NCBI RefSeq assembly: GCF_006345805.1
Contig: NC_043013.1
Coordinates: forward strand, 21,886,001-21,950,000
DNA from: Octopus sinensis
Taxonomy: Eukaryota
Length of the DNA: 64,000 bases
Direction of reading: 5' to 3'
The notes under the pieces are model-generated. The model was not told the DNA's origin. It was given only the letters and a program-made list of their open reading frames with translations, and ran no database searches. Of the stretch, positions 6,808 to 59,933 are shown piece after piece (position 1 is the first letter of the stretch; each line of letters opens with the position of its first letter). Made by a program: the position numbers and the translations under genes.

Positions 6808-7065
6808 CGTCTCCATACTTGGTCGGCACAGATCTTCTCAACTGATAAAAACGGGTATTAGTTATTTTTATTAGCATCCTCTCTGTTGAGTCTTCTTCGT
6901 ATAAAATACAGCTTGGACTTATCATTCTGCTCACGAAGGATTTACATGCAGAAGTTTCAAAACAACTCTTCGAACAGTTGAAGGCATCCACGTCAAATGT
7001 CATCAATGTTTTGGCATCTTTCAGAGCACAGTTTGGTACTTTCATAAAATACTTCAGATATTCAA
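6808..7065 (-). CDS. Paralog A PAN domain 1 exon (258 bp)
   Basis: ttacag acceptor, G|gtaaac donor, open frame, same length in all three copies. Confidence 0.85.
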
Positions 7066-10000
7066 CTGTAACAAAGCCAGGCAAATTAAACAACCAAAAT
7101 ACGAAGACGAAAATTAAATATTGTGAAAATAGATAATAATAAATAAATAGAATATTAAATGTTTGAGGATCAGCATTGATATTTTTACCAGGAAGAAGTG
7201 ATAGAGTTGTTACTACCATATTGTAGGTACAAAGATCTTGGGATATATAATCTGTTTAATGAAAATGACTGCGAATGAGTCTTAAATGTTGTTTAATTAA
7301 TTCTATTATTTAAATGATTCACATATTATATACTATAATGTTTAACGGTTGTTTTTTGTAAAGAATGTCCCCTGATACCAGCCCTTTGTTTTATTTAACA
7401 AAATGCTTACAAACTGACAGAATACTGAATTATCACCAATGGAAATTATGTTAAGACGTGAATTCGTCATAATACGTGTTTTATCTTGAGTTTTCTTTTC
7501 ATCAAATTTACTTAGAGAAGGATAAGTTTTAAGTAGTGATTTTCATAATTTTCATAGATATATATCTATATATTGATAAAAATTTACTTACGTCCATTTC
7601 CAAATGTCAGTGAGATGTAGAAGAGAACTGCAATGAAAATTTATTTTGGAAAAAAATTGAATATTTCATATCCACGTTTAACATTAATTTACAAAGAATG
7701 AAGATGAAAGGAATAAGAAAGAAAAGTGCTACAAGCATAATTCAGTAGCAAATACGGCGATGACCACCACTACATCACCATAAAATTACCCATTGAAATA
7801 ATGAGGGAGAGCGACAAATTGGAGAGGGACAGAAAGAGAGGGAACAGAAGAGAGAGGGATAAGAGGGTTGAGGGTGAGATAAAAAGAGAGAGGAGCAAAA
7901 ATAGAAAAAGAGGAAGAAAGAAAAAGAAATGTTATTTGTTTCAAACGAGATCAGAAGCATCAGTATTTCTTGGAAGAGAACATTCTAGACACTTCAGAGA
8001 CTTTAGTGAAAGTATTACGTATAACTTGTTCGTAGAATTAACCACCTTTTATAAAGGCGAGTCACCACTTTTATAACGGGTTGATTCTATCTTATTTACA
8101 GAGTGATTATTGTCCTGAGTAGACTTTTCTAAGTCCACGTCGGCTTGTCACCAATATATAAGGTTGTGTTGGATTATCTGGTGTAGAATGTTTTTGACTT
8201 GGAAAAGATAATAAATATAGATGTTTACTGAGTAGAAATCTATAGTGATAAACCGGTCACTTATAACTTAACTATAAGTGTTACCACTATACATAAATCT
8301 TAACTCAGGCTGCGTAAACACCGTGATGAATTATACACCAAGACGCTGAAACGTACATGTTGAAAGGTCACCGCTATAATAACAGTTTCATGGATACAGA
8401 AATAAATCTCATTAACAGGTTGAAGAAAATGAAGAAAGAGAAATTATTTACTAAATTAGTTTAATTACGTACATTTAATATTTATGGTACATTTAGAAGT
8501 CAAAGAAAATTGTCGTAGAGAGTTACGACATAAAATTTATATTAACTAATTCTTCCATACTAAACAAACAGAGTTTTACACAACGATTCAAAATAGTCTT
8601 GTTGGATTTAAGTAATAGAGATGGCATAAAAATAGCCAATATCTCAAGAGAGTGAGTGTCGTGGAAATGAGTGACAACCAACGAACACTGATTAATTTTG
8701 ATCTCACTGGACAAGGGATAGGCATAGTTCAGAAGGTTTAGGTCATGTTAATATTCACCCATTTTATATATATATATATATATATAAGCTGTATTTTAGC
8801 TGATGAGTACGGGACACTTTTATCTGCTGCAATTTTTGCAATTTGTAATAAAGCCTGTCTTTGTATGAAACAATTGTACTAAATACTAATCCATTCTTGT
8901 TGTTTCTTTCTCGTGTATATATATATATATATTATATATATATATATATATATATATATATACATATATATATATGTATATATAAGCATGTATGTATGTA
9001 TGTATGTGTGTATGTGTATATGTATGAATGTATGTATACATACACATATGTATATTCATTTTAATATATATGTATACTCATGTGTATATATATGTGCATA
9101 CATATAAAAACACACATACACATACATAGATGTATAATTGCATAAGTTGGTGTAACAAGAAGGAATACGAAGGAACATTTATTTGTATACCCTAAAATTG
9201 TTTCCACGCACCGCAGTCTTTCATTTTGGCAGGAATTTGGTTACGCAAACGTTTCTCTTCATTAAGAATTCTTGTTGCGTCAACGGGTCGTCTGCATGTA
9301 ACATTATTAAGATATAGTCACATGACAATCGTTCCCTGTGATACTCAGTGGTGAATAAAATATTGATTAATTGGTATAAACTGGTGTTAATAAAGGAGTA
9401 TTGGGGCAAAGGAACATGTTAATTATCTATTAAGTAAATTATAATCTAAGCAAGTTTTTTTATAAGTAATGAATATACCAGTATAGTATGAATTTATAGA
9501 GATACAAAACTTAGAATTAGTTTTATAAATAAAGGCTAATTATAAAATGATAAAGAAATACAATAAAATGATCAGGTAGGGCAGAACACCATAGAAAAGG
9601 AAATAAAATAACTTAATTACCAATACTATGGTAACGCATATGTAGCTTATTAACACAAATAGAAATGATTTTTAGAAAAAGTATAATACTTCAAAATATA
9701 TTAGACTAAAAGTTATATATTTACTTATTTAGCTAATATCAATAAAAGACTGATGTTTGATGTCAGCTAAAGGAATATTTAAGTTACGGAACAATCATAT
9801 TTTATACTAATCTTTTTTTTTACAATTAAGAGTCATATCAAAGATTTAAGAAGTTAATATTGTTACTCCCTACATGATATTTATAGTTTCTTAGTTGTAC
9901 TTGTTTAGAAGGGTTATTTAAATAAAGGCCCTTGTCAATACTAAGATCAGGGGGATAGAGCCATTTAAGAAAGAGATAAATCAAGTAATTTCTAAGGATC

Positions 10001-58800: not shown

Positions 58801-59933
58801 TAATCAAGAAGATTATTAAGAATGAAATTTTAACATAAGGATAAAACTTCTTTGAATATTTGGAGTACCGTAAATCCTCGAGTATAGTCCGTCTTTGAGT
58901 ATAATACGCAGGGGATTTGAGGGGGGGGCTGTACCTCTGAAATACCTAAACCTTGTGTATAATAGGCACTCCTTCTCTAACTTGAGTCAAGGAGGTCTAT
59001 ATAACGTCCTTGGTTTGTAAAAATGTATATGGTAACGTCCTTTATTATAATTGTATATATAACATAGTGCGAACGTGTAGTATTTTTGTGCATTTTGTTT
59101 GTAGAAAATAAAGAAATAACAGTAATAACGTTTAATAAATGTTGCTTACTGTAATTTATGGATGATTCTTTTATGACTTCATTGCTTTCAGGTTTAAGGT
59201 ATTATCACGCCCGAAATCACAAAATGCGTCTGATTAAACATAGCCAGAGAGAAAATATAAACTCGGACATAGCTTAGAAAATAATTTTTATTTTTAACCT
59301 CGTATATAGTACGCACTAGGTATTTTGACCTTTAGATTTTAGGAAAAAATGCGGATTATACTCGAGGATTTACGTTATATACCAAAGTTTTACCACAATA
59401 GAGAGAGAGAAGAAAATTGCATTAGTTTTGAATATTCTTGTTGCTTATTTTGATTTTAATCACCTTACTTTGAAATTGTATGGATAATACCGTACTAAAT
59501 TCTGGTCCCTCAACTTAAGTACCATATTCATGTGAATCTAAATTTTTGCTGAACTCTCTCTCTCTCTCTCTCTCTGTATATATATATATATATATATATA
59601 TATATATATATATATATATATATATATATATATATATATATTTATATATATATATATATATATATATATATATATATATGTATATATAGATATTTATATA
59701 TTTATATATATATATATGTGTATATATATTTATATATATATTTATATATATATATATATATATATATATATATATATATATATATATATATATATATATA
59801 TACACATATATACAAAATGTGTTATTGTGGGGTCTCAGTCGTGATGGCTAAATTCTTAAATAATTAAAAGCATATTAATTATACAATAAAACATTTACTT
59901 ACAAATAATTTGAAGATAATTCCTCCTCAACAT
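43644..59933 (-). CDS. Secreted three-PAN/Apple-domain protein, paralog C (exons 59933-59903, 56395-56360, [55973-55909, frameshifted, probably skipped], 55785-55528, 46498-46268, 43834-43644); 248 aa without exon 3
   Basis: ATG to TGA with all GT-AG phase-1 junctions; signal peptide [22 protein letters not shown]; apart from exon 3, exon lengths match paralogs A and B. Confidence 0.78.
46268..46498 (-). CDS. Paralog C PAN domain 2 exon (231 bp, variable domain)
   Basis: ctcag|GA AGA TGT ... AGA G|gtaagt; [22 protein letters not shown]. Confidence 0.85.
46697..46913. repeat. (AAT)n/(GAT)n microsatellite
   Basis: Direct inspection. Confidence 0.97.
46976..48310 (+). mobile_element. Gypsy (Mag-like) LTR retrotransposon 5' remnant: LTR-like region, PBS, gag, start of protease
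   Basis: PBS-like TAGCGACGAG at 47166; gag [10 protein letters not shown], two zinc knuckles (CYRC.., CFDCGKIG), protease LQLDTGSD. Confidence 0.8.
49440..51430 (-). mobile_element. Second family of R4-like RLE non-LTR retrotransposon, degenerate
   Basis: [33 protein letters not shown] and NHLLFMDD across broken ORFs. Confidence 0.85.
51448..53502 (-). mobile_element. 5'-truncated Dong/R4 copy (same family as 1-3961) with internal RT deletion
   Basis: Very similar to 1769-3961, same 3' end, (TAA)n on both sides; the YMDD segment is deleted (GCGY joined to RKMRQ). Confidence 0.9.
53612..54175. mobile_element. ~560 bp non-coding interspersed element next to (ATT)n, copy 1
   Basis: Direct repeat of 54607-55160 with the same ends. 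Confidence 0.7.
54275..54606. repeat. Mixed (CAT)n/(CCT)n/(ATT)n trinucleotide repeats
   Basis: Direct inspection. Confidence 0.92.
54607..55160. mobile_element. ~555 bp non-coding interspersed element in (ATT)n, copy 2
   Basis: Starts GAGTGAGGGAGCAGCGCATG, ends GCATCAGGGCAT; flanked on both sides by ATT repeats. Confidence 0.7.
55528..55785 (-). CDS. Paralog C PAN domain 1 exon
   Basis: Same splice sites and length as in A and [21 protein letters not shown]. Confidence 0.85.
58866..59377. mobile_element. MITE (paralogous to 10107-10624)
   Basis: TIRs TACCGTAAATCCTCGAGTATA ... TATACTCGAGGATTTACGTTA. Confidence 0.7.
59555..59812. repeat. (CT)n + long (TA)n microsatellite
   Basis: Direct inspection. 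Confidence 0.95.
59903..59933 (-). CDS. Paralog C first coding exon ([10 protein letters not shown])
   Basis: ATG ... T|gtaagt; conserved with 10905-10935. Confidence 0.65.

Follow-up and report, generated by a model that had tools for sequence, protein, structure and literature searches.

A tandem family of three-PAN-domain genes in Octopus sinensis with positive selection on two of its domains

Apple domains are documented glycan binders. Domain 5 of the Toxoplasma protein MIC4 binds galactose (PMC13672358), and this binding is abolished by the substitution K469M (10.1101/187690). A 64,000-nucleotide stretch of the Octopus sinensis contig NC_043013.1 (G000:C17:21886001-21950000; hereafter the window, within which all unprefixed positions are counted) contains three paralogs, A, B, and C, of a gene family whose products of ~280 amino acids have a signal-peptide-like start and three PAN domains in the order PAN-PAN-linker-PAN. 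The best sequence matches in the PDB are MIC4 and Sarcocystis SML-2, which are secreted apple/PAN proteins (E 9e-8 and 1e-6). The second octopus domain (PAN2) also shares its fold with plasminogen, HGF, factor XI, and prekallikrein, but the octopus proteins have no kringle or protease domain, and whereas the plasminogen type is a conserved single gene, the octopus family is multigene and under diversifying selection.

The known relatives are uncharacterised or 'Apple domain-containing' models from O. sinensis (XP_036366243.1, XP_036366256.1, XP_036354797.1), O. bimaculoides (XP_014769852.1), O. vulgaris (CAI9735246.1), and Argonauta (GAB1605676.1). They share the N-terminus and the PAN-PAN-linker-PAN order, with 63–87% identity over PAN1 for the Octopus models, but are automatic and in several cases mis-spliced, one of them skipping the 96-nt exon. 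Literature searches that included these six accessions found no description, function or selection analysis of the models, and searches on octopus apple-domain or cephalopod PAN-domain proteins found nothing on this family. It is not described in the available portions of PMC9068888 (text and supplement), 10.1101/2024.05.23.594666, PMC3532174, PMC13672358, PMC9024836, and 10.1101/187690, nor in that of PMC7656900, where a Pfam heat map includes a row of unreadable direction labelled 'PAN domain'. The octopod family is real and undescribed; it is built on a known domain, and automatic annotations of it already exist. Domain, tandem expansion, and exon-focused selection are each familiar individually; the evidence for selection is what the present analysis adds to the existing annotations.

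The shared coding exons are of phase 1 with AG/GT ends and are 31, 36, 258, 231, 96, and 191 nt long; the first two encode the signal-peptide-like segment, the 258-, 231-, and 191-nt exons encode PAN1, PAN2, and PAN3, and the 96-nt exon encodes a linker. A Cys-motif scan of the window reveals seven PAN-like frames, and all seven domain exons score above the curated cut-off of Pfam PAN_1 (PF00024; 22.5–36.9 bits against 21.4), as expected from a first-pass annotation of the window that had proposed PAN/Apple domains. The same annotation predicted a signal peptide and no transmembrane or catalytic region. A and C do begin with a basic start and a hydrophobic core (19-residue Kyte-Doolittle 1.1–1.2), A, B, and C have no later hydrophobic stretch (19-residue Kyte-Doolittle ≤1.0 past residue 25), and four full-length members contain no domain beyond the PAN clan (no kringle, protease, ZP, CUB or other egg-coat domain); the signal-like start is missing from B, which has no exon 1. 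Secretion is likely, judging from hydropathy and the database gene models. The reading frame closes at residue 280, PAN3 matches ~54–56 of the 75 PAN profile positions, and each protein has 1–4 N-glycosylation sequons. Extra unpaired Cys residues vary among copies, with one near the end of PAN2 in B (30155–30385) and one close to where PAN1 begins in A, C, and other copies (6808–7065), and could allow covalent dimers to form.

Divergence among the copies is concentrated in PAN2. Mean amino acid identity within the genomic cluster that contains the window is 0.87 for exon 3 (PAN1), 0.55 for exon 4 (PAN2), 0.90 for exon 5 (linker), and 0.86 for exon 6 (PAN3), and a sliding divergence profile peaks within exon 4, higher than in its flanks. 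Exon and intron were compared in 10 B-type copies, excluding C and a neighbouring gene, g11, whose flanks are far older. Among these copies PAN2 has a nonsynonymous distance (dN) of 0.253, a synonymous distance (dS) of 0.183, and a flanking-intron distance of 0.105, with dN greater than dS in 39 of 45 pairs and greater than the intron distance in 43 of 45. Codon site models give a likelihood-ratio test statistic (LRT) of 102.6 for PAN2 (M2a versus M1a, 22 copies; omega 3.9 at 20% of sites; M8 versus M8a 100.8) and 54.4 for PAN1 (21 copies), and no significant signal for PAN3 (LRT 2.1, 20 copies) or the linker (LRT 0, 19 copies), both with omega ~0.5–0.7. Simulated recombinant copies evolving without positive selection (the mosaic null) reach a maximum LRT of 26.0 for PAN2 (39 runs) and 17.7 for PAN1 (28 runs); the observed values are three to four times the largest of these, and the main PAN2 and PAN1 signals survive. 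PAN2 and, more weakly, PAN1 are positively selected, and PAN3 and the linker are without signal.

The predicted structure of PAN2 from B has a predicted local distance difference test score (pLDDT) of 94, and its best structural matches are the PAN domain of plasminogen (Z 12.4, root-mean-square deviation 2.0, 75 aligned) and the HGF N-domain (Z 12.0), followed by the prekallikrein apple (Z 9.6), the MIC4 and SML-2 apples (Z 9.4–9.6), leech anti-platelet protein (Z 8.3), and saratin (Z 4.8). The PAN fold foreseen by the first-pass annotation, with a five-stranded sheet, one helix, and four core Cys, is found in PAN2, the one domain tested, and the core residues C29, C33, C39, and C51 are invariant in 24 aligned rows. 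Twelve PAN2 sites are selected with posterior >0.9 (14, 15, 20, 22, 45, 48, 50, 52, 62, 64, 66, and 69 in B numbering); these lie on strands and loops, in part at alternating i, i+2 positions (20/22, 50/52, 62/64/66), and none is in the helix at 26–35. Because of their spacing relative to Cys51 and the beta1-5-3-4-2 topology of the PAN sheet (PMC9024836), we infer that they would form a single patch on the side of the sheet that faces away from the helix.

A Cys at the start of PAN2, which aligns with the first apple Cys, and a Cys in the 96-nt exon occur together in 16 of 17 aligned homologs, the remaining homolog having neither, and this co-occurrence suggests that the two would pair as a third, apple-type disulfide. 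PAN3 ends short of the usual last PAN strand. A circular permutation in which the tail of the 96-nt exon supplies the missing strand gains no support from profile scores, since in 17 copies permuted sequences did not outscore those with shuffled tails; an Atlas match in which residues 206–280 align to a 94-amino-acid PAN protein (TM score 0.64) is no more than a lead.

The exons have conflicting histories. Each rejects the trees of the other exons (approximately unbiased test, p-AU 0.003 or less), although rejection is favoured when the best trees of short alignments are compared. The exon-4 flanks of C and g11 are ~0.4 distant from those of B and A, and the PAN2 domains of C and B are identical at only 31 of 76 residues, whereas the other exons of C have 82–94% protein identity to those of A and B. 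C and g11, the clearest case of such conflict, carry an old PAN2 cassette in a young frame. Through duplication and recombination between copies, constant exons would become widespread in nearly identical form and PAN2 cassettes would be shuffled.

The window lies within an 11-gene, 390-kb cluster, of which eight genes carry the complete set of six exons in open frame, two lack exon 1, and one is frameshifted in its last exon; the cluster also contains two remnants and two duplicated last exons. The duplicated exons belong to g3 and g9, each with two tandem PAN3 terminal exons ~760 nt apart and both open (G000:C17:21754414-21755365 and 21951269-21952225), and are possible alternative last exons. 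Searching the genome with the PAN1 exon gives 46 matches, 40 of them with E <1e-20: 11 in C17 (the contig of the window) at 21.68–22.03 Mb, 5 in C17 at 12.9–14.5 Mb, 2 in contig C29, and 22 in small contigs, several of which score identically to C17 copies and are possibly redundant. Weak PAN1/PAN2 matches mark further PAN-gene clusters at G000:C17 39.1–39.5 Mb, C9 20.4–21.4 Mb, and C13 18.9–19.2 Mb.

A profile search of 1.84 billion representatives yields 253 matches; 20 of the 150 listed were looked up and comprise 17 from Octopus or Argonauta, two unnamed, and one annelid partial. The full architecture is seen in Octopus and Argonauta only, among these 20 of 253, and a search with an alignment of distant members returns octopod proteins in six of six cases. 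From these matches the family appears restricted to octopods. Both the lineage-specific expansion and the lack of a named gene that the first-pass annotation proposed agree with these results, as the copies extend beyond the 11-gene cluster, the relatives are from Octopus and Argonauta, and no characterised gene is among the matches looked up. Exons 3 and 4 of the neighbour g11 are identical to XP_036366243.1. There are also distant octopod proteins whose PAN arrays are the same or longer.

Splicing was assessed with contigs of four sequencing runs, guessed to be RNA and none recorded as such, aligned to gene B. Four of the five introns of the family gene structure are supported by spliced contigs, with a GT..AG joint between exons 2 and 3 in contigs of three of the four runs, between exons 5 and 6 in two, and between exons 3 and 4 and exons 4 and 5 in one (a single 796-nt contig with three differences from B). 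Contigs of run X1 cover introns and contain none of the exon joints. Contigs spliced over predicted junctions, which the first-pass annotation had named as a check, come from three of the four putative RNA runs. Its exon list (31, 36, [63], 258, 231, and 191 nt) holds for the phase-1 31-, 36-, 258-, 231-, and 191-nt exons, but it missed the 96-nt exon and included a 63-nt segment that is not coding; the former is real and the latter skipped because the contigs splice that way. Contigs of three of the four runs join the 36-nt exon directly to the 258-nt exon, the segment does not keep frame (of the 11 copies in the cluster, three have 63 nt, three 64 nt, and five 65 nt), and in C it introduces a frameshift and a stop at amino acid 47. 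A stop directly after the 258-nt exon by read-through of its donor is likewise rejected, since contigs splice onward to exon 4. Six-exon models of C and of A, the latter completed with its exons outside the window, have open frames that encode 280 amino acids with 15 Cys.

The reading that we tentatively favour, with a rough probability of 0.45, is that the tandemly expanded octopod three-PAN family is a soluble recognition repertoire binding foreign surfaces that vary, with microbes or parasites as their most probable source. The binding patch on the helix-free face of the PAN2 sheet would differ from copy to copy, as would the specificity, and the constant linker and PAN3 would serve as scaffold or effector handle. 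The first-pass suggestion of recognition or effector proteins, with immune, reproductive, mucus, or salivary roles as candidates, gains support from the positive selection on PAN2 and PAN1. A more elaborate and rather doubtful form would make this an octopod germline-diversified repertoire on a PAN scaffold, comprising dozens of secreted variable-constant proteins with recombined and selected PAN2 cassettes and a strand-swapped or permuted PAN3 as constant effector end, as a cephalopod counterpart of snail FREPs and bivalve C1q arrays. We know of no diversified receptor set built on the PAN scaffold. If the proteins are recognition factors they would provide a concrete diversified receptor set in octopuses, with bearing on cephalopod immunity and aquaculture disease, and whichever role they play the selected sites show where to seek the ligand.

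Several points weigh against the recognition reading, of which the immune component is itself an analogy. SML-2 Lys59, which we take to be the equivalent of MIC4 K469, aligns to family position 54, where 20 of 22 copies have Ser and 2 have Leu, so that the family probably lacks a galactose-binding Lys of the MIC4 type. The binding patch is read from secondary structure rather than from coordinates, the full-length AlphaFold model is unusable (pLDDT 40.7), and no exon 1–2 junction is seen in the reads. PAN2 dS exceeds the distance of the intron flanks in 41 of 45 pairs, and because dS is raised too, part of the exon-intron contrast reflects homogenisation of constant regions; over PAN2 as a whole, dN/dS averaged across pairs does not exceed 1 (0.99 within the cluster, 0.80 across all 22 copies). 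The site models were run with custom code that keeps relative branch lengths fixed, and the copies analysed included likely pseudogenes and one near-allelic pair. Mosaic nulls exceed the nominal 5% level in 33–46% of runs, and the LRTs of subsets are near mosaic noise (5′ half 17.2, cluster-only PAN1 20.2, B-type subset 32.8).

Salivary or venom-gland accessory proteins, with a variable PAN domain binding prey proteins as leech salivary PAN-fold proteins do, are an unlikely alternative. Multigene families of venoms characteristically combine an exon that evolves faster than its introns with omega ~4; the same fold is seen in leech anti-platelet protein and saratin at the Z scores given above, and the family is seemingly octopod-restricted. 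However, a preprint on cephalopod venom-gland transcriptomes (10.64898/2026.02.02.703354) does not mention PAN, apple, or plasminogen domains in its main text, and no family motif or name is present in the supplement of a paper on the O. vulgaris posterior salivary gland (PMC7693380), a file that may omit proteins. A reproductive role (in seminal fluid, the spermatophore, the egg coat, or the secretion of egg strings), with sexual conflict or gamete recognition as the cause of diversification, is improbable to a similar degree. Reproductive proteins typically belong to families that are secreted, restricted to a lineage, and positively selected, and gene words occur in 4 of 19 listed runs guessed to be RNA, counts that are no evidence on expression; against this, the diversification is among at least ~18 paralogs in one genome rather than in a single-copy gene between species, and the four full-length members have none of the egg-coat domains named above. 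In either role these genes would constitute an overlooked fast-evolving venom or fertilisation family.

There is little to recommend proteins of mucus, skin or sucker matrix, or odorant carriers, whose variation would adjust adhesion or the transport of ligands and have nothing to do with defence. The products are small and Cys-rich with a few N-glycosylation sequons, and PAN domains are present in matrix and adhesive proteins among the Atlas structure neighbours, but structural matrix proteins rarely have omega ~4 at surface sites. Moreover, no family motif occurs in the available portions of skin-mucus and ink proteome tables (PMC10138644, PMC10142993). A neutrally churning cluster under relaxed constraint and gene conversion, with most copies dying, would account for the two genes without exon 1, the frameshifted last exon, the two remnants, the whole-exon omega ~1, and the conflicting exon trees, but is very improbable and already disfavoured by the eight genes with six open exons, the invariant PAN2 core Cys, the margin of the LRTs over the mosaic null, and the omega of the linker and PAN3.

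The features of the three genes, read from splice sites, are listed in Table 1. A and C are repeated in the same orientation, B in the opposite one; in a self-BLAST of the window 6689–12869 is repeated directly at 55409–62349 and 5348–8023 is repeated in inverse orientation at 26959–29440. The first-pass annotation had counted three paralogs, and three members are indeed present, but only C is complete, as A runs outside the window (its 231-, 96-, and 191-nt exons are to the left at G000:C17:21879399, 21868071, and 21867302) and B has no exon 1. An AATAAA is situated ~110 nt downstream of exon 6 of B.

Table 1. Coding exons of genes A, B, and C and the rejected segment (window positions).
Feature	Position	Strand	Description
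Gene A coding exon 1	10905..10935	-	31 nt, ATG, start of signal-peptide-like segment
Gene A exon 2	7592..7627	-	36 nt, hydrophobic core of signal-peptide-like segment
Gene A exon 3	6808..7065	-	258 nt, PAN1; exons 4-6 left of window, G000:C17:21879399-21867112
Gene B exon 2	27355..27390	+	36 nt; upstream exon 1 not found
Gene B exon 3	27857..28114	+	258 nt, PAN1
Gene B exon 4	30155..30385	+	231 nt, PAN2, hypervariable domain
Gene B exon 5	34980..35075	+	96 nt, conserved Cys-bearing linker exon
Gene B exon 6	35575..35765	+	191 nt to stop; PAN3, ends before last PAN strand
Gene C coding exon 1	59903..59933	-	31 nt, ATG
Gene C exon 2	56360..56395	-	36 nt
Gene C exon 3	55528..55785	-	258 nt, PAN1
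Gene C exon 4	46268..46498	-	231 nt, PAN2; old divergent cassette, common to C and neighbour g11
Gene C exon 5	44493..44588	-	96 nt
Gene C exon 6	43644..43834	-	191 nt to stop, PAN3
Rejected '63-nt exon' in B	27671..27733	+	Part of an intron and skipped; corresponding segments at A 7251-7189 and C 55973-55909 (65 nt in C)

Exon 1 of B was not found by BLAST, ungapped scan, or an nhmmer profile of 15 exon-1 copies (404 kb searched), and the same profile over 404 kb finds none for g9, the sister copy of B. These two genes share ~14 kb of upstream DNA at ~95% identity, and directly 5′ of exon 2 in B lies DNA with homology to the first introns of other copies; B is likely a 5′-truncated copy with exon 1 absent in the present assembly. 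A/B and g10/g9 are paralogous head-to-head pairs (window 12900–27350; G000:C17:21973600-21998000), each with one partner lacking exon 1 and with the same transposon-rich upstream block. The exon-1 truncation is older than the pair duplication, because both pairs carry the truncated partner and this block.

The window also contains mobile elements. A young long interspersed nuclear element (LINE; RVT_1, zf-RVT) is present twice at ~96% identity, at 1553–3592 (+) in intron 3 of A and 51431–53503 (-) in intron 3 of C, the two being opposite in orientation relative to their host genes. A short dispersed repeat, presumably a short interspersed nuclear element, forms three tandem copies ~185 nt apart at 15922–16470 and also occurs near 20918–21097 and 39568–39750. 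Between the 3′ ends of B and C there are transposon-like inverted copies, 92–96% identical (36859–38296, 41405–42214, 63222–63998), and a weak DDE_3 match is located at 40794–41159.

The octopus genes share elements with several known systems. MIC4 and SML-2 are conserved parasite galactose lectins, whereas the octopus family is hypervariable next to the aligned Lys position. Leech anti-platelet protein and saratin are small secreted lophotrochozoan proteins with a PAN-like fold, but have low identity (14–15%) and a different domain count. The snail FREPs, bivalve C1qDC proteins, and amphioxus VCBPs are built on Ig, fibrinogen or C1q scaffolds rather than PAN, and the octopus family is a member of none of them. 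It would nonetheless work like them. They are encoded in tandem arrays, and their secreted products combine a constant part with a binding domain that varies; the octopus locus has, as do FREP and C1qDC families, a tandem multigene array with a positively selected, putative binding domain.

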